From the IMG/VR virus record IMGVR_UViG_648861009_000003: 22,328 nucleotides of DNA, one strand, 5' to 3'. This document shows, one piece after another, positions 4,109 to 16,878 of the stretch. The translations under genes were made by a program, and so were the position numbers. The first letter of the stretch is position 1; every line of letters begins with the position of its first letter. The notes below the pieces were generated by a model that saw only the letters and a program-made list of their open reading frames with translations, was not told the DNA's origin and ran no database searches. This DNA is from a virus. Taxonomy: Duplodnaviria; Heunggongvirae; Uroviricota; Caudoviricetes.

Positions 4109-4368
4109 TTATACCTCTGAATCAATATCAACCTGGTGGTGAGCAATGGTTTCAACCATGTACCGGATGTGTTCTGCCATGCGCTCCTGAAACTCAACAT
4201 CGTCATCAAACGCACGGGTAATGGCTTTTTTGCTGGCCCCGTGGCGTTGCAAATGATCGATGCATAGCGATTCAAACAGGTGCTGGGGCAGGCCTTTTTC
4301 CATGTCGTCTGCCAGTTCTGCCTCTTTCTCTTTCACGGGTCGATCTGCTGGTAGTGACGCGCCCAGCT
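4109..4368 (-). CDS. gam: gam, 3' portion (copy A) abutting the N-gap; 5' end corrupted by indels
   Basis: Translation ...[74 protein letters not shown] matches the lambda Gam C-terminus; the last ~40 nt before the gap carry extra bases relative to copy B. Confidence 0.75.
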
Positions 4369-4814
4369 NNNNNNNNNNNNNNNNNNNNNNNNNNNNNNNN
4401 NNNNNNNNNNNNNNNNNNNNNNNNNNNNNNNNNNNNNNNNNNNNNNNNNNNNNNNNNNNNNNNNNNNNNNNNNNNNNNNNNNNNNNNNNNNNNNNNNNNN
4501 NNNNNNNNNNNNNNNNNNNNNNNNNNNNNNNNNNNNNNNNNNNNNNNNNNNNNNNNNNNNNNNNNNNNNNNNNNNNNNNNNNNNNNNNNNNNNNNNNNNN
4601 NNNNNNNNNNNNNNNNNNNNNNNNNNNNNNNNNNNNNNNNNNNNNNNNNNNNNNNNNNNNNNNNNNNNNNNNNNNNNNNNNNNNNNNNNNNNNNNNNNNN
4701 NNNNNNNNNNNNNNNNNNNNNNNNNNNNNNNNNNNNNNNNNNNNNNNNNNNNNNNNNNNNNNNNNNNNNNNNNNNNNNNNNNNNNNNNNNNNNNNNNNNN
4801 NNNNNNNNNNNNNN
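4369..4814. other. Run of 446 N (assembly/scaffold gap)
   Basis: Contiguous N characters; both flanks are copies of the same gam sequence. Confidence 0.95.
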
Positions 4815-5111
4815 CCGTTTATACCTCTGAATCAATATCAACCTGGTGTGAAGCAATGGTTTCAACCATGTACCGGATGTGTTCTGCCATGCGCTCCTGA
4901 AACTCACATCGTCATCAACGCACGGGTAATGGCTTTTTGCTGGCCCGTGGCGTTGCAAATGATCGATGCATAGCGATTCAAACAGGTGCTGGGGCAGGCC
5001 TTTTTCCATGTCGTCTGCCAGTTCTGCCTCTTTCTCTTCACGGGCGATCTGCTGGTAGTGACGCGCCCAGCTCTGAGCCTCAAGACGATCCTGAATGTAA
5101 TAAGCGTTCAT
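4815..5111 (-). CDS. gam: gam, copy B: intact start ([34 protein letters not shown]...) but 3' part frameshifted by single-base deletions near the gap
   Basis: The N-terminal 56 aa match short-form lambda Gam; downstream the sequence is the same as 4105..4368 but with at least 6 one-base deletions. No in-frame upstream ATG for a long Gam form. Confidence 0.75.
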
Positions 5112-5875: not shown

Positions 5876-6808
5876 CTATTCGATTTTTTTAACCATGTAG
5901 TTACGTCGTGATGTTCCTAATCTTTCATTGTGAATCTCAGAAACGCTTACTACGAGCGATATTCGTTCACCAACTTTATATTTACTTTGAATTTCTCCTA
6001 ACATATCAATCGGATAAGAAGCCTTTATTTTTCCAAGCTCGCTTGCAATCTCCAATTTCCCGTACATGGATAAAATAGCAAGTTCGCCTGATATATGCTC
6101 ATCCGGTAGCTGAATGACCTTCGTTAAAGCTAAGCGAGCATTCAGTTTTTTTATATCTTCTGAAGAAATTGACACTTGTCTGGTACCATCACTTAAAGGT
6201 CCAATCCAAGTAAGATCAAAGTTAAGACTATATTTTTCGCACTCATTTATGATGTTTTTTAGGTTAGCTGTTGATTGCGAACCAATTTCGGCAATTTTAG
6301 CCGTGAATGTTTCTTCATCAATGGATGAGAGTAGTGCAAAAATCTCCTTAACAGCATGACTGGATACTGTTTCGATGAGCTCGCAAGAACCAGTAGAAAA
6401 AGTAACACCTAACTTCGTCGAACCTGGACGCAAGTCTGCCAATCTCATGTCTAATGATTTTTTAACATCAATCGGCACACGACTAGAATCTTTCCCAGAT
6501 CCAAGTCGGTAAACTGCTTTCTGTACAAGGGATGCGAGATTACCTGAAATTACAGATAGAATATCTAACGGAATAGACCCGAAATCGACCAAAACACCTT
6601 TTAATCTCAACTCCATGAAATCACGTAAAGGATGTTGGTTATCGATTGCACGTTGTCTCTCTCGGAGATCGCTCAGATGGGAGTCAAGTGATCTAAATAT
6701 AATGTCATCAGCAAATGATCTCCCCTTATTTTGAGCAAGCAGATCCACATCGCGTTGAATGAACGCAATTCGCTCCTTGAGGGAGTTGAATGTTTTTTCT
6801 TCGCTCAT
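5876..6808 (-). CDS. Unknown 310-aa protein, second gene of the repressor-linked accessory operon
   Basis: Long ORF with no family recognised; start overlaps the upstream NTase-like gene by 4 nt (ATGA), implying translational coupling; contains R-x4-H (RSLDSH) and R-x5-H (RAIDNQH) strings that are too common to count as evidence of HEPN. Confidence 0.75.
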   Translation of the reverse strand: MSEEKTFNSLKERIAFIQRDVDLLAQNKGRSFADDIIFRSLDSHLSDLRERQRAIDNQHPLRDFMELRLKGVLVDFGSIPLDILSVISGNLASLVQKAVYRLGSGKDSSRVPIDVKKSLDMRLADLRPGSTKLGVTFSTGSCELIETVSSHAVKEIFALLSSIDEETFTAKIAEIGSQSTANLKNIINECEKYSLNFDLTWIGPLSDGTRQVSISSEDIKKLNARLALTKVIQLPDEHISGELAILSMYGKLEIASELGKIKASYPIDMLGEIQSKYKVGERISLVVSVSEIHNERLGTSRRNYMVKKIE

Positions 6809-7278
6809 AACATTACCCTCACGAGGCCTTTAGGATTCTCCTTCCGATCAAAACCAAACCACCCTCTCCAGTAACTTCGCCTTTCACTATAATCGATTTC
6901 TGGATGATTTTCAGGCAGCAAAAGAACGTCAATGCTGTAGTTTTCTTTAATAAAATCTCTATTTAACAATGAGCTGACCAATGGCATCAGCGTGTTTGGC
7001 AAAGAGTTTAGGGCCAAATAATCGACGACCACGAGTATATCTATGTCATCAGGTTCAGGTTTCTCTGTAGTGAATGAACCATCGATCCACACTTCAGAGA
7101 AACATAGACACTGCTGATTAACAAGTTTAAATTGCTCAATAAGCTGTATAAAATTACAGTATAGCATACTTCTTCTAACGGATTTTGGGAAGGTGTCGAC
7201 ACAAAGAGACTTGATGCCATCACTATCCATATCATGAAATCCTGCTGTAAGAAGAGGTGGGAAGCTAGGCTTTTCCAT
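6805..7278 (-). CDS. Minimal pol-beta-type nucleotidyltransferase-like protein (157 aa)
   Basis: Motif VWIDGSFTTEKPEPDDIDILVVVD fits the GS-x9-DxD signature of minimal nucleotidyltransferases, with a further acidic residue in YSIDVLLLPE; lies 81 nt downstream of the repressor gene on the same strand. Confidence 0.7.
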   Translation of the reverse strand: MEKPSFPPLLTAGFHDMDSDGIKSLCVDTFPKSVRRSMLYCNFIQLIEQFKLVNQQCLCFSEVWIDGSFTTEKPEPDDIDILVVVDYLALNSLPNTLMPLVSSLLNRDFIKENYSIDVLLLPENHPEIDYSERRSYWRGWFGFDRKENPKGLVRVML

Positions 7279-9079: not shown

Positions 9080-10009
9080 ATGGCAAACACTGCTGAGATA
9101 TTCAATTTTCCAGTGCCGGATGCGGCACAAAAGGAGCCGCGCGTGGCAGATCTCGATGATGGTTATACGCGCATTGCAAATGAGTTGCTGGAAGCTGTGA
9201 TGCTGGCCGGATTAACACAGCACCAGCTTCTGGTCTTCCTGGCTGTCATGCGCAAAACATATGGCTTTAATAAAAAACTGGATTGGGTGAGCAACGAGCA
9301 ACTTTCCGAATTGACCGGGATATTGCCGCACAAGTGTTCTGCTGCAAAAAGCGTTCTGGTAAAGCGTGGGATTCTTATTCAGAGCGGGCGGAATATCGGC
9401 ATTAATAATGTGGTCAGTGAATGGTCAACATTACCCGAATCAGGTAAGAAAAATAAAGTTTACCTGAAAGAGGTAAATTTACCTGAATCAGGTAAGAAAA
9501 GTTTACCCAAATCAGGTAAAGGCGTTTACCCGAATCAGGTAAACACAAAAGACAAACTAACAAAAGACAATATAAAACCTTTTTCGTCCGAGAATTCTGG
9601 CGAATCCTCTGACCAGCCAGAAAACGATCTTCCTGTGGTGAAACCGGATGCTGCAATTCAGAGCGGCAGCAAGTGGGGGACAGCAGAAGACCTGACCGCC
9701 GCAGAGTGGATGTTTGACATGGTGAAGACTATCGCACCATCAGCCAGAAAACCGAATTTTGCTGGGTGGGCTAACGATATCCGCCTGATGCGTGAACGTG
9801 ACGGACGTAACCACCGCGACATGTGCGTGCTGTTCCGCTGGGCCTGCCAGGACAACTTCTGGTCCGGTAACGTGCTGAGTCCGGCCAAACTCCGCGACAA
9901 GTGGACCCAGCTCGAAATCAACCGGAACAAGCAACAGGCTGGCGTGACAGTCGGCAAACCAAAACTCGACCTGACAAACACTGACTGGATTTACGGGGTG
10001 GATCTATGA
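9080..10009 (+). CDS. O: Replication initiator O (chimeric: divergent N-terminal iteron-binding domain, lambda-like C-terminal domain)
   Basis: Start taken at MANTAEIFNF (GGAGG SD) by analogy to lambda O MTNTAKILNF; the C-terminal ~150 aa (SENSGESSDQPENDL...WTQLEINRNKQQAGV...DWIYGVDL) match lambda O; iterons lie inside the gene. Confidence 0.9.
   Translation: MANTAEIFNFPVPDAAQKEPRVADLDDGYTRIANELLEAVMLAGLTQHQLLVFLAVMRKTYGFNKKLDWVSNEQLSELTGILPHKCSAAKSVLVKRGILIQSGRNIGINNVVSEWSTLPESGKKNKVYLKEVNLPESGKKSLPKSGKGVYPNQVNTKDKLTKDNIKPFSSENSGESSDQPENDLPVVKPDAAIQSGSKWGTAEDLTAAEWMFDMVKTIAPSARKPNFAGWANDIRLMRERDGRNHRDMCVLFRWACQDNFWSGNVLSPAKLRDKWTQLEINRNKQQAGVTVGKPKLDLTNTDWIYGVDL
9431..9585. repeat. Replication origin: five 17-bp iterons plus an A-rich region inside O
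   Basis: ttacccgaatcaggtaa (9431), ttacctgaaagaggtaa (9459), ttacctgaatcaggtaa (9479), ttacccaaatcaggtaa (9503), ttacccgaatcaggtaa (9526), followed by acacaaaagacaaactaacaaaagacaatataaaacc. Confidence 0.8.
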
Positions 10010-10707
10010 AAAACATCGCCGCACAGATGGTTAACTTTGACCGTGAGCAGATGCGTCGGATCGCCAACAACATGCCGGAACAGTATGACGAAAAGCCACA
10101 GGTACAGCAGGTAGCGCAGATCATCAACGGTGTGTTCAGCCAGTTACTGGCAACTTTCCCGGCGAGCCTGGCTAATCGTGAGCAGAACGAACTGAACGAA
10201 ATCCGCCGCCAGTGGGTTCTGGCTTTCCGGGAAAACGGGATCACCACGATGGAACAGGTTAACGCAGGAATGCGCGTAGCCCGTCGGCAGAATCGACCAT
10301 TCCTGCCATCCCCCGGACAGTTTGTAGCCTGGTGCCGGGAAGAAGCATCCGTTATTGCCGGACTACCAAACACCAGCGAGCTGGTTGATATGGTTTACGA
10401 GTATTGCCGGAAGCGTGGCCTGTATCCGGATGCAGAGTCTTATCCGTGGAAATCAAACGCGCACTACTGGCTGGTTACCAACCTGTATCAGAACATGCGG
10501 GCCAATGCGCTTACTGATGCGGAATTACGGCGCAAGGCTGCCGATGAACTGACTTGTATGACCGCGCGAATTAACCGTGGTGAGGCGATACCTGAACCAG
10601 TAAAACAACTTCCTGTCATGGGCGGTAGACCTCTAAATCGTGCACAGGCTCTGGCGAAGATCGCAGAAATCAAAGCGAAGTTCGGACTGAAAGGAGCAAC
10701 TGTATGA
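10006..10707 (+). CDS. P: Replication protein P (DnaB helicase loader)
   Basis: 233-aa translation MKNIAAQMVNFDREQMRRIANNMPEQYDEKPQVQQVAQIINGVFSQLL... is near-identical to lambda P. Confidence 0.96.
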   Translation: MKNIAAQMVNFDREQMRRIANNMPEQYDEKPQVQQVAQIINGVFSQLLATFPASLANREQNELNEIRRQWVLAFRENGITTMEQVNAGMRVARRQNRPFLPSPGQFVAWCREEASVIAGLPNTSELVDMVYEYCRKRGLYPDAESYPWKSNAHYWLVTNLYQNMRANALTDAELRRKAADELTCMTARINRGEAIPEPVKQLPVMGGRPLNRAQALAKIAEIKAKFGLKGATV

Positions 10708-11006
10708 CGGGCAAAGAGGCAATTATTCATTACCTGGGGACGCATAAGAGCTTCTGTGCGCAGGACGTTGCTGCGGTAACAGGCGCAACAGTAACCAGTA
10801 TAAATCAGGCTGCGGCTAAAATGGCACGGGCAGGAATCTTGGTCGTTGATGGTAAGGTCTGGCGAACGGTGTATTACCGGTTCGCTACCAGGGAAGAACG
10901 GGAAGGAAAGGTGAGCACGAATCTGATTTTCAAGGAGTGTCGCCAGAGTGCCGCGATGAAACGAGTGTTGGCAGTGTATGGAGATATGAACTTAAACTTG
11001 CTGTGA
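10704..11006 (+). CDS. ren: Ren (Rex-exclusion protein) with a divergent C-terminus
   Basis: MTGKEAIIHYLGTHKSFCAQDVAAVTGATVTSINQAAAKMARAGILVVDGKVWRTVYYRFATREEREGK... matches lambda Ren except for the last ~8 residues. Confidence 0.9.
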   Translation: MTGKEAIIHYLGTHKSFCAQDVAAVTGATVTSINQAAAKMARAGILVVDGKVWRTVYYRFATREEREGKVSTNLIFKECRQSAAMKRVLAVYGDMNLNLL

Positions 11007-11254
11007 CGGTTTTCATCGGTAACACACCATGTAATCTAGCAGTCAGCTTAGAAATAGGAGCGGCAGTTAAAGATTTTTCAGTTAGTAGAAAATTACTGTT
11101 ATTGCAGGGATCTAATCACCGGAGAGTCGTTCCATTTGTCTTATGATTACCTGAAGTCCGTTAGTTCGTTGGTAATCACCGTTTTTGTTAGAGAAGTAAG
11201 CATCGCTGACAAAATATTCTCAACGATGCCTGCTTTATTGCTACTACAAATTAA

Positions 11255-12756
11255 TTAAATTGCATCTGCAAACTCTGGGGTTTTTCGCTCAGGTATAATT
11301 GATGAGTTGCTGTTGTCACTTTTTTTATTTTCATGATTACGAATAGCCAATGACTCATTAAAGTCTTTTGCGACTGCTGTCTCAATAAATTCAATTTCTG
11401 AATCAGAGTGTTTTTTAACAGCTTCTTTGATCTCATCCAGAGTAACATAGAAAAACTCTTTTCTACGATTTACAAGATTGACTCTCTTTTTATCGAAGAC
11501 ATCATGTAGTTTTTTTCTAATGATGGAGCGTCCTCCGAATAAATCATGGCATGTACATCAAAAATAAAAGGAACAGATGCATCACCGAGCTCATTTACAC
11601 GGTCTTGCGGATCAAGACGTCGTGTCATGCCTATTTTATAAACATTCTCCCCAAAAGAACCTATGTTCGAAATAATATAAACATGACCTTGTTTGGTTTG
11701 TTGTGCCATGGATAATGCTCTTTGATGCTTTGATTCAGCCTGCGACAAACTCTGTTCTAGTTCGGCAATGCGATTTTCGAGGCGCTGCTTCATGTCACCA
11801 GTAACTTTTTCCATTTCCTTTCTTGCAGCTTCAATTGCTTTTTTATAACGGCGCTCTTCTGCCTCTGCGTCTTGCATGGCCTTTTCTATTTCTCGTTGTG
11901 CACGCTCCTCCTCTCTCATTTGTGCCCTTATTTCTGCCTGTTCTTCTTTTTCTTTCTGTTTTTGCTCACGATATTCATGGGTAAGCCACAATTCCTCAAG
12001 TTTTTTATTGAGGTATTTAGTGTTTATATATATGTGATTTTGCTCGTTTAGTTTATTTATGGCCTCAAATGCCTTTGTGATGCGTTCTTCCATTTTAGTG
12101 ATGTTTTTCCACGTGCAATTGCTAATTGCAGCATCACATTCATTATTAAATGCTCTAGTAGTTAGCCTGATATTTCTGTCTGTCATTTTTTTACCCTCTG
12201 CTCGAGAGCCTTCAACAGTCCATTGGGTTGTACAATATACTGCGCCAGAGTGGGTTTTATCCCGCAGCATTAATTTCTGTTCATCCCTGATGGATTTTAT
12301 TTTGTTTTTAAATTGCTCTGAATCTTCAAAATTAAAATGAGGTTCGTAAAATCCTAGTTCGGCTAGCTCAACATCTTCTGAATAAATAGAAATTTGCCTT
12401 ACTAGTTTATCATATATTTCTTTCTTCTCTTTATAAGTTCTTCTTAGCTCTTGGATTTGTTTATTGATACCATCCATTTTTTCAATGGTGTTTGTTAGTT
12501 CATTATTGGCATTTTCTTTTACTTTTAGGGATTCTTCTTTTATTATGGAGCATTCTTGCTCTGTTTTCTCAATAAGCTTCTTACATTCTTCTTCTACATT
12601 AAAATAATCTGCAAAGCGAGATTTGTATTCTTCATTTTTTTGATTGCTATCACTTAATTCTAATTGTATTTTTTTGATGCGTTTGATTGCAGCTATATAA
12701 AGAACAAGAACAACCAATAAAAATATGATTGCAAGTAATAGAGGAGTTTGAGTCAT
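11255..12756 (-). CDS. DUF4041/T5orf172 (GIY-YIG-like)-family protein with N-terminal TM helix and long coiled-coil; reading frame broken at a T7 homopolymer (11510..11516)
   Basis: The 428-aa ORF (11470..12756) contains GHVYIISNIGSFGENVYKIGMTRRLDPQDRVNELGDASVPFIFDVHAMIYSEDAPSL; the family-typical C-terminus LHDVFDKKRVNLVNRRKEFFYVTLDEIKEAVKKH... continues in the -1 frame to a stop at 11255. N-terminus LLLAIIFLLVVLVLYIAAI is hydrophobic; the gene is strongly AT-rich. Confidence 0.75.
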
Positions 12757-13065
12757 TCGTGCTATTCCTTACGGACAATTTAAGACGTTTTGTATTAAAT
12801 CCTGTTCAATGTGTATGCGGGTGATTGCTACCGCTTACAATCTTCATAATTATCAGTTAGATAGACTCGCTAGTAAATAATTTCATTTTTTGCAATATTC
12901 TTATTGAATATTTCAATTTATGAAATGAACTCTTTATCCTTTCAAGGTGAAAGGTTTCTTCTTCGGAAATATTTGCTCTCGTGTGACGTATAAAGACCTT
13001 TGATTTTCAAAAATCAGTAGGGAATAATATAGTTACTGTCGGCCTGAACACCCGGTGGTGGGGTT

Positions 13066-13155
13066 GCGCTAAACGGGGACGTTTATGCGCACACACAATC
13101 CAAACTCTCATCTCCATTCACAGATGCAGAAATGCACCTACGATTTTTTACATTC
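13066..13155. repeat. Direct repeat copy 1 (~90 bp, about 92% identical to 14999..15088)
   Basis: gcgctaaacggggacgtttatgcgcacacacaatccaaactctcatctccattcacagatgcagaaatgcacctacgattttttacattc. Confidence 0.9.
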
Positions 13156-13246
13156 GGTGTTTTACTTCGACAGCCAGAATTGGGAGTCTCTATTCGTCTG
13201 GCGGCTAAAGGTGATATGGAAATCGTTATGTTTTGGCCTGAGGTAG
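13085..13246 (+). CDS. Small ORF (53 aa) sharing an SD and N-terminal ~20 aa with the ylcH-like ORF
   Basis: GGGGAC SD followed by ATG; MRTHNPNSHLHSQMQKCTYDFLH... parallels [23 protein letters not shown] of the second repeat copy; could be a duplicated gene start rather than a functional gene. Confidence 0.3.
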   Translation: MRTHNPNSHLHSQMQKCTYDFLHSVFYFDSQNWESLFVWRLKVIWKSLCFGLR

Positions 13247-13568
13247 TTGTAACTGTTGTAGCAGCTATGGATGTGATCATCATGGTGTCCATTTACTGGG
13301 GTTGACGACATGATTTATCCGGCGCTATATTCTGTGCGTTGCCGCAAAATCGGCACACGGGATTGGCGTCCCGGGATACTACTCAACGCATACCGCGTTA
13401 AGCGGTTTTTTTGTGCGCTAAGCACGGCTATGCCCAAATTATGGTGGGCTGTGTGAGGGCTTCTTCGGAAGCGCCGGGTTTGAGTAGCCGGTTACGCCAA
13501 CCTTACACAGTTCACCACCAGTCGATTGGCGTCGTTGGTGGTGATGGTTAACCTGATGAGGTGATACT

Positions 13569-14177
13569 ATGACTACTCAATTAGCATTCCACAAAACGAC
13601 GTTTACCCCGATTTGCCACAATAACAGAATTTGGCTTACTGCCACTGAAGTTGGTTTAGCACTGGAATATGCGGACGATAAAGCAGTTCAGCGCATTTAC
13701 TCTCGGCACTCAGATGAATTCACAGATATGATGACAAGGGTGGTCAAAGTGACCACCCCTCGTGGAATGCAGGAGTCTCGAGTATTTAGCCTTCGCGGAG
13801 CCCATTTGATCGCCATGTTTGCTCGTACTCCTGTGGCCAAAGAATTCCGCCGCTGGGTTCTGGATATTCTCGATCGAGAAGTTCAACAATCCCCAATCAC
13901 AAAACAATTCACTGATAACGAACTTTGCACACTCGCCTGGTTATGGCGAGCAAGTGATACGATGTTAACCGCCTGCCAGAACGTTACGCCCCTTCTTCAG
14001 GTCGCAGAGCATCGCGAAGCAGGTAGATTCACTTCAATCGAACAAGAATATCCTCGGATACTCAACAGGGCGCGAGAAATCCTTGCCAGAGAAACGGCGC
14101 ATGTAAAATTCCAACCGTGGCAGGATGATAAGTGGAGTCGTGTGTTACCATATTTCCGTCAGAATCTGTTGCAATAA
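13569..14177 (+). CDS. Bro-N / P22 AR N-terminal domain protein (Roi/antirepressor-like)
   Basis: 202 aa; N-terminal IWLTATEVGLALEYADDKAVQRIYSRH...SRVFSLRGAHLIAMFARTPVAKEFRRWVLDIL fits the Bro-N/AntA-type domain pattern. Confidence 0.75.
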   Translation: MTTQLAFHKTTFTPICHNNRIWLTATEVGLALEYADDKAVQRIYSRHSDEFTDMMTRVVKVTTPRGMQESRVFSLRGAHLIAMFARTPVAKEFRRWVLDILDREVQQSPITKQFTDNELCTLAWLWRASDTMLTACQNVTPLLQVAEHREAGRFTSIEQEYPRILNRAREILARETAHVKFQPWQDDKWSRVLPYFRQNLLQ

Positions 14178-14194
14178 AGTCACTAGTTAGAAAT

Positions 14195-14238
14195 ACTGCC
14201 AGCATTCTGCGATGACGGAAGTGCTGGCATTTTTTTTG
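14195..14238 (+). terminator. Rho-independent terminator after the Bro-N gene
   Basis: ctgccagcat...gtgctggca stem followed by tttttttt, 20 nt after the stop codon. Confidence 0.5.
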
Positions 14239-14412
14239 GTAATGTGCGAGTCCATTTCATAAAATACGGGTACTGGAACTGGACGATATAATCTAAAAGA
14301 TACCATTATCAGTAGCATTAAAATCGCTATGTGCCGATACGGATATAAATTATATTGATTGTTCACATACCTTATTGGATATTACTGAGGGGTGTTTATA
14401 TAAGGTGTAACG

Positions 14413-14937
14413 ATGATGTGGAACTTTGACAGTGCCGACTTAAGTGCAATAGCAGCAGGCATTTCTGCGTTTGGCACATTAGCCGCAGCGGGGTCGGCGC
14501 TTGCAAGTTGGTGCACGTCAAAAAAAGCGCTGCAGCTACAAAATAGAGTTTACCTTTATGAGTCTTTAAAGGCTTGCGCTGAGAGAGCCAATTCATCAGC
14601 TAAAGATAAGCGCGGATCTGAATGGAGCGTTAATGATGCAGCGGATATCATCAGGTGCCTAGTACGGGCGATGGAGCTCATCAAGCAGGATAGCCAGCAG
14701 AAAGAAGGTAATCAGGCATTAATGTTGAAACAGTACTTTGTTAATCTGCTAATAATGGAACTGTACGAGGAAGTTCATAACGGTGATGCGGCTGATTCTG
14801 TTTTTAAAAGTACGGAACCTACACAAGTACTTGATAACTTATGGAGCAAATGGCAGGAGGCTATAGCTTTTTTGATATTTGGAATTACCCAGTTGCGACT
14901 GAGGAAGACTTGGCAGACTAATTTTCAGCACATTTGA
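14413..14937 (+). CDS. Unknown 174-aa protein with an N-terminal hydrophobic (membrane-anchor-like) segment
   Basis: ORF with its own upstream AT-rich promoter-like region after a terminator; residues ~11-34 (LSAIAAGISAFGTLAAAGSALASW) are hydrophobic; no family recognised. Confidence 0.6.
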   Translation: MMWNFDSADLSAIAAGISAFGTLAAAGSALASWCTSKKALQLQNRVYLYESLKACAERANSSAKDKRGSEWSVNDAADIIRCLVRAMELIKQDSQQKEGNQALMLKQYFVNLLIMELYEEVHNGDAADSVFKSTEPTQVLDNLWSKWQEAIAFLIFGITQLRLRKTWQTNFQHI

Positions 14938-14998
14938 TTTCCAATAATCAACCAGCCATAATCATGCCATTGGAGCTTGAACAACTCCGGTGACTTCT

Positions 14999-15088
14999 GC
15001 GCTAAACGGGGACGTTTATGCGCACATACAATCCAAACTCTCTTCTCCCTTCACAGATGCAGAGATGCACCTGCGATTTTTTGCATCC
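14999..15088. repeat. Direct repeat copy 2 (~90 bp)
   Basis: gcgctaaacggggacgtttatgcgcacatacaatccaaactctcttctcccttcacagatgcagagatgcacctgcgattttttgcatcc. Confidence 0.9.
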
Positions 15089-16383: not shown

Positions 16384-16878
16384 TGTTTGAGTTTAATATN
16401 NNNNNNNNNNNNNNNNNNNNNNNNNNNNNNNNNNNNNNNNNNNNNNNNNNNNNNNNNNNNNNNNNNNNNNNNNNNNNNNNNNNNNNNNNNNNNNNNNNNN
16501 NNNNNNNNNNNNNNNNNNNNNNNNNNNNNNNNNNNNNNNNNNNNNNNNNNNNNNNNNNNNNNNNNNNNNNNNNNNNNNNNNNNNNNNNNNNNNNNNNNNN
16601 NNNNNNNNNNNNNNNNNNNNNNNNNNNNNNNNNNNNNNNNNNNNNNNNNNNNNNNNNNNNNNNNNNNNNNNNNNNNNNNNNNNNNNNNNNNNNNNNNNNN
16701 NNNNNNNNNNNNNNNNNNNNNNNNNNNNNNNNNNNNNNNNNNNNNNNNNNNNNNNNNNNNAGAACTTCTTCGCCACCGCTGGGGGCGTCTGCGCTTATAT
16801 CGTTTCCCCGGCTCTGTTTTGACCGATTACCGAATACTGAAGAATTACGCCAAAACACTGACAGGAGCAGGAGTATGA
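16380..16878 (+). CDS. ylcG: ylcG-like small gene split by the N-gap (5' part 16380..16399, 3' part 16761..16878)
   Basis: The 5' flank encodes MMFEFN and the 3' flank encodes [38 protein letters not shown]; joined by about 3 nt they would reconstitute a 46-aa protein matching DLP12 YlcG as I recall it. Confidence 0.6.
16400..16760. other. Run of 361 N (assembly/scaffold gap)
   Basis: Contiguous N characters; the flanks are the two halves of ylcG. Confidence 0.95.

Follow-up and report, generated by a model that had tools for sequence, protein, structure and literature searches.

The window, a stretch of 22,328 nucleotides, contains as an exact substring a locus (L016) of the 2010-era draft scaffold GG774902.1 (assembly GCA_000163215.1). 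The prophage at this locus is a full-length DLP12-like lambdoid element adjoining tRNA-Arg and fimZ, with a gene content of intD, ybcN, ninE, ybcO, rusA, ylcG, quuD, a porin gene and essD. The gene described here lies between ren (10704..11006) and the nin-region genes ybcN, ninE, ybcO and rusA, antisense to its neighbours, which is the placement given in the original prediction. As written in the window, its reading frame occupies 11470..12756 on the minus strand and, according to the list of open reading frames and their translations, encodes 428 amino acids, starting with MTQTPLLLAIIFLLVVLVLYIAAIKRIKK and ending with DAPSLEKNYMMSSIKRESIL before the stop codon. Residues 1–415 are authentic and are followed by an out-of-frame tail of 13 residues (NYMMSSIKRESIL) and a stop. 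The adjoining frame (11255..11515, minus strand) translates to a sequence running from KKLHDVFDKKRVNLVNRRKEFFYVTLDEIKEAVKK to EFADAI and a stop codon. Both frames join in a homopolymer at 11510..11516, which reads T7 on the plus strand and A7 on the coding, minus strand, where the intact allele has eight bases; the translations in both frames bear out the break that had been located there. Addition of one base at T7 fuses the two frames into a single ORF, as had been anticipated, although its length is 500 amino acids and not about 510. The product of this ORF is referred to below as the repaired protein.

The gene resides in a moron cassette (11007..13064) extending from the ren stop codon to the first copy of an 89-bp direct repeat. 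The GC content of the region from about 11000 to 13000 is 0.29–0.39, compared with approximately 0.50–0.55 in the flanks, in agreement with the proposed AT-rich moron. When the stretch from the ren stop codon to the start of the next gene (11007–13568), which contains the cassette, is compared across prophages, it is 99.2–100% identical in elements whose flanks differ by 1.5–2%. A candidate sigma-70 promoter for the gene, a consensus match only (TTTACT and GATAAT with a spacing of 17), is located at 12849..12877 on the minus strand, about 93 nucleotides upstream of the ATG. The accessory block of around 4 kb that had been described at this site does intervene between ren and ybcN, but it is made up of two independent modules, the cassette and a separate module at approximately 13153–14998, rather than one.

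Domain organization and identity

The repaired protein begins with a predicted transmembrane helix (12688..12744, minus strand; residues 5 to 23 approximately, PLLLAIIFLLVVLVLYIAA), followed by KRIKK. The mean Kyte-Doolittle hydropathy over residues 6–24 is 3.37 and the KRIKK flank is of the positive-inside type, which supports the amino-terminal membrane anchor of the original prediction. No other hydrophobic segment is present in the repaired protein, the next best Kyte-Doolittle value being 0.87. The lysine- and glutamate-rich coiled-coil that had been proposed is recognizable as two highly charged helical regions, residues 25–130 and 255–350, with 43–47% charged residues. The DUF4041 domain (PF13250, now named SNIPE) is formed by residues 198–252 (12001..12165, minus strand) and matches its Pfam profile with 70.4 bits against a cut-off of 27. 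At the carboxy-terminal side, a GIY-YIG/T5orf172/MUG113 nuclease domain is formed by residues 357–449 (11411..11688, minus strand); it covers positions 1–99 of the 101 positions of the T5orf172 profile and contains the catalytic residue E414. The Pfam search, with E-values of 1.2e-19 for DUF4041, 7e-19 for MUG113 and 6.9e-17 for T5orf172, all well above the gathering cut-offs, confirms the family assignment that had been made from the letters alone. Searching solved structures by sequence gives only low-complexity coiled-coil noise (E>0.07), with no solved relative detectable in this way; an AlphaFold3 model has already been published for the same protein.

When the repaired ORF is compared with the PADLOC profile for PD-Lambda-1, residues 1–485 align to positions 1–485 of the 491 in the profile (E=1.9e-198, 658 bits), which substantiates the suspected role in defence; a second PADLOC model matches with 7e-195. 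The match to the PADLOC candidate PDC-S57 is only a local one (E=1.7e-18, residues 354–468). PD-lambda-1 was discovered in ECOR26 by functional selection in 2022 (PMC9519451), and was renamed SNIPE when its mechanism was characterised (Saxton et al. 2026, Nature; PMC13190303). The ECOR26 gene has 1503 nucleotides, with DUF4041 at residues 197–252, T5orf172 at 357–448 and MUG113 at 373–449, and the repaired ORF shows the same arrangement: 500 amino acids, a transmembrane helix, DUF4041 and GIY-YIG domains, and a lambdoid-prophage context. The likeness to the ECOR26 protein (RCP76574.1) is one of length, domain coordinates and nine cited residues, as all nine residues cited by position in the mechanistic study (E223, N250, L253, W257, E264, K305, I308, T319 and E414; PMC13190303) are matched under the same numbering. 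On these sequence criteria, the gene is identified as SNIPE (formerly PD-lambda-1), an anti-phage defence consisting of one gene, in a copy carried by a prophage, and the repaired protein would be the characterised SNIPE protein or one trivially different from it. The copy in the window differs from SNIPE only in that the homopolymer following codon 415 is one base shorter, so that the nuclease domain is truncated.

The repaired ORF equals WP_000195116.1 (500 amino acids), since the DNA is identical to that of NZ_CP030768 except for the run; over 1851 bp, the sole difference is T7 in the window instead of T8. In RefSeq, WP_000195116.1 is named a DUF4041 domain-containing protein and, in newer records, a SNIPE associated domain-containing protein, while the gene is annotated as PD-lambda-1 in phage PhiR26_1. 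A near-identical SNIPE gene is found in 132 of 5426 complete E. coli genomes and is chromosomal in every case. In about 130 complete E. coli genomes (NZ_CP030768 and NZ_CP023142, for example), WP_000195116.1 is encoded in DLP12-like prophages at argU, and its neighbours are the same as in the window, with ren upstream and the isrK/C4/Bro-N module, ybcN, ninE, ybcO and rusA downstream. System and protein are both known, and the genomic setting is the usual one; the novelty implied by the original prediction is lost, SNIPE having been named and mechanistically characterised already, as the PADLOC match and the RefSeq name indicate. The outcome is mainly a clean negative, a defence system known already (Nature 2026), of which the frameshift is the one unusual feature.

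Mode of action and predicted role

The topology of SNIPE has been determined experimentally, with the amino-terminus outside and the remaining part in the cytoplasm. Its DUF4041 domain binds DNA and makes contact with the tape measure proteins of siphoviruses, and the carboxy-terminal GIY-YIG domain is the nuclease, of which the E414A substitution abolishes defence. SNIPE associates with ManYZ as well as with lambda's tape measure protein, phage DNA is cut during, not after, injection, and SNIPE that lacks its transmembrane helix is toxic through cleavage of the chromosome. The protein acts on lambda and many siphoviruses of the BASEL collection and is without effect on myoviruses and podoviruses (all PMC13190303).

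By analogy, the elongated charged helical region, DUF4041 and the carboxy-terminal nuclease would form the cytoplasmic part of the membrane-anchored protein encoded here. Associated with ManYZ and the phage tape measure protein, it would be placed where the siphovirus genome enters, incoming phage DNA would be cleaved at injection and the cell would survive; the membrane tether would hold the nuclease off the chromosome. This would be direct defence and not abortive infection. The single-gene abortive-infection mechanism put forward in the original prediction is rejected on the basis of published work on the same protein, with which infected cells survive and grow at high multiplicity of infection, unlike those with the abortive-infection control PD-lambda-3 (PMC13190303). 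Generic T5orf172/MUG113 GIY-YIG proteins (PF10544, PF13455) share the carboxy-terminal nuclease domain with SNIPE, but these families are defined by that domain alone and neither an amino-terminal anchor nor DUF4041 is required; the anchor and DUF4041 give SNIPE a spatial discrimination of self from non-self that the generic families lack.

The homopolymer run at 11510..11516

The reading frame breaks directly after E414 (11515–11517) and K415 (11512–11514). The A8 run that encodes E414-K415-K416 in the intact gene reads A7, so that translation of the allele in the window would stop 13 codons later. The continuation is found in the -1 frame (11255..11509, minus strand) and encodes residues 417–500 of intact SNIPE and the stop codon (11255–11257), comprising the last part of the GIY-YIG/T5orf172 core, which extends to about 11411, and then the carboxy-terminal tail. 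The nuclease domain as written is thus split at 415/416 and cut after residue 415. In the truncated product the anchor, DUF4041, both the GIY and the YIG motif and E414 itself are retained, while the helix after E414, the remaining nuclease core (residues 416–449 approximately) and the carboxy-terminal tail are absent; the A7 allele would lose the last 35 or so residues of the core, about its last third. We infer that the truncated 428-residue product would be inactive, given the GIY-YIG fold and the effect of E414A.

With a 66-bp probe that spans the run, T8 is found in 130 of 131 complete genomes. The original prediction had held that a confirmed T7 without full-length homologs would indicate a pseudogene; full-length homologs do exist, the run being intact in the same 130 of the 131 complete E. 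coli genomes in which the gene is present. The lone complete genome with T7 is strain TB354, where the copy belongs to another prophage and is split by IS1 as well. The exact 428-residue product (WP_244555784.1) occurs on about 36 contigs, one of which is common to 6 samples, the intact protein being on at least 1000, and the population frequency of T7 is approximately 1–3%.

Comparison of the window with the finished genome NZ_CP023142 over about 21.5 kb reveals no substitutions and 11 single-base indels, which is the signature of homopolymer undercalling. Nine of these crowd the edges of an N run inside gam, two at 4333/4340 and seven at 4818–4944, so that the gam flanks do show the same type of error, as had been noted. 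The sequences flanking this N run (4369–4814) overlap by about 263 bp, both mapping to positions 6001–6263 of the reference region (L004), and the gap therefore joins contig ends of low quality; the frameshifts that appear in gam are artefacts. Of the two internal indels, one shortens T8 to T7 in SNIPE and the other T7 to T6 at 14868; each breaks a gene that is intact in relatives. The other two T8 runs in the window (14230 and 18629) are read correctly and therefore the assembly does not miscall every run of eight; its miscall rate at other runs of at least seven bases is 1/12. Two further assemblies with T7 are clearly prone to error: in L005 all three T8 runs of the region are read as T7, and L015 (CP163909.1) has seven homopolymer undercalls and no SNPs in 20.5 kb. 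L015 also has both internal indels of the window, but it was rejected as independent proof that these are real, its heavy undercalling making the coincidence a technical one.

A rough weighing of the miscall rate against the frequency of T7 favours an artefact by about 4:1 or better. A sequencing undercall is the likeliest cause of T7 in the window, in line with the homopolymer error suspected originally, and the miscall at the SNIPE run would be technical. Our main reading, to which we assign a probability of roughly 0.78, is that the window holds a SNIPE copy whose A7 is a homopolymer undercall in the draft scaffold GG774902.1; the real strain would then carry functional SNIPE. In the source record SNIPE was passed over or cut short by gene callers, with no gene called there in L016, and censuses of defence systems that use such drafts will therefore under-count it.

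In some strains T7 is nevertheless a real allele, and it could be one in the window too, as a loss-of-function allele arisen from replication slippage at A8, with neither DNA cleavage nor defence; this we consider unlikely for the window. In an audit of all 44 runs of at least six bases in the reference region, checked across all loci, T7 in the SNIPE gene is the only long-homopolymer discrepancy with finished references in seven independent assemblies (L003, L006, L007, L009, L012, L013 and L014). These seven clean carriers are spread over approximately four cassette haplotypes. L009 has the haplotype of the window and a single indel in 17.7 kb, and L006 was seen in 6 samples. To see whether T7 is a lone change in L006, its haplotype was sought among finished genomes with T8, but none is closer than 98.2–98.4%; when the diverged T7 loci are compared in pairs under a 99% HSP filter, only L006 versus L011 is informative. 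The T7 copy of TB354, being split by IS1 as well, shows that the SNIPE gene decays in nature, a T9 allele (A9, +1; 418 amino acids, WP_302313577.1) is present on 5 contigs, and a frameshifted gene would be null, because the nuclease is essential, E414A alone abolishing defence (PMC13190303). Against a real T7 in the window stand its low prior (one of 131 complete genomes, 36 contigs against at least 1000 intact) and the fact that the source assembly demonstrably errs in this way, with ten other indels and no substitutions. About half of the sampled T7 carriers, moreover, are error-prone assemblies: L005, L008, L010, L011, L015 and the window itself have further shortened runs besides the one in SNIPE.

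The clean T7 carriers on about four haplotypes, together with the T9 allele, suggest that the A8 tract is probably also a real, minor hotspot of slippage and low-frequency inactivation. SNIPE is probably lost in nature through this tract, given that the A7 null allele is present, on several haplotypes, in assemblies that are clean in other respects. These recurrent A7 and A9 null alleles in apparently clean assemblies are the sole residual point of the locus. As the run gathers both technical and real single-base indels, calls of the presence or absence of SNIPE should check it explicitly. That the tract acts as a contingency-like switch, turning SNIPE on and off via A7 and more rarely A9, with the window as an OFF variant, is doubtful; such a switch might reflect a carriage cost of a membrane nuclease or selection by siphoviruses.

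A further reading is that the A7 allele yields full-length SNIPE by -1 ribosomal frameshifting or transcriptional slippage, in which case the frameshift would not be a null but a state of low or regulated expression. The zero-frame sequence gaA AAA AAC has the canonical X_XXY_YYZ form of a slippery heptamer, a -1 shift on it gives the authentic continuation (LEKKLHDVF), and poly-A tracts are known to allow polymerase slippage. A run of seven nucleotides is short for efficient slippage by RNA polymerase, however, and AAC in the A-site shifts poorly in E. coli. Folding of the downstream sequence gives a minimum free energy z-score of -0.77, with 51 of 200 shuffled sequences folding as well, and thus no stimulatory structure. 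Moreover, the ancestral and overwhelmingly common A8 is in frame (130 of 131 relatives), so that nothing selects for recoding. We regard recoding as very improbable, and a programmed -1 frameshift gene was rejected as a candidate: the heptamer A_AAA_AAC is present, but with neither a stimulator nor a conserved shifted state.

Interruption by insertion sequences is a further independent route to inactivation of the gene. In the complete genomes NZ_CM144251.1 (H1) and NZ_OZ392478.1 (H2), SNIPE is interrupted by IS5. In the stretch 9869–14054 of TB354 (L003, NZ_AP038814), a diverged SNIPE, about 97.5% identical, is split by IS1A; it adjoins a gene for a 515-residue HD-domain protein that is absent from the prophage in the window and may be another accessory or defence gene of the same hotspot.

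Other modules of the prophage

The second module of the accessory block (13153–14998 approximately) contains isrK (13340–13412, plus strand; Rfam, 58.7 bits) and the C4 antisense RNA (13437–13522, plus strand; Rfam, 74.8 bits), directly upstream of a Bro-N/P22AR antirepressor-like gene (13569–14177), and a gene for a 169-residue protein. Together isrK, C4 and Bro-N make up an antirepressor module under sRNA control, of the P1 immI / Gifsy-1 isrK type. The whole module is bracketed by an 89-bp direct repeat (13065–13153 and 14998–15086), of which the two copies are 93% identical. It is missing from L013 and TB354, and as both join at the repeat, this suggests that the module is inserted or deleted by recombination between the two copies. 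In the 169-residue protein gene (ORF 14413–14937), the run at 14868–14873 (plus strand) has six T residues where relatives have seven, and the hypothetical protein has an altered carboxy-terminus, with a length of 174 amino acids here and 169 in relatives. The 174-residue variant occurs in only 4 contigs, one of which is the window's own source and another a heavily undercalled assembly.

Further downstream, a gap of 361 N in ylcG (16400–16760) replaces only 3 bases of the finished relatives; either its size was set wrongly in scaffolding, or it stands for an insertion of about 358 bp that was masked or left unassembled. On the other side of the SNIPE cassette, next to the cI-like S24 repressor gene and where lambda has rexAB, a two-gene operon (5876–7278, minus strand) encodes a DUF6932 protein of 157 amino acids and a protein of 310 amino acids. 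It matches the PADLOC candidate PDC-M63 (M63A 7.4e-43, M63B 4e-42), and the prophage therefore carries a second, uncharacterised candidate defence module besides SNIPE.
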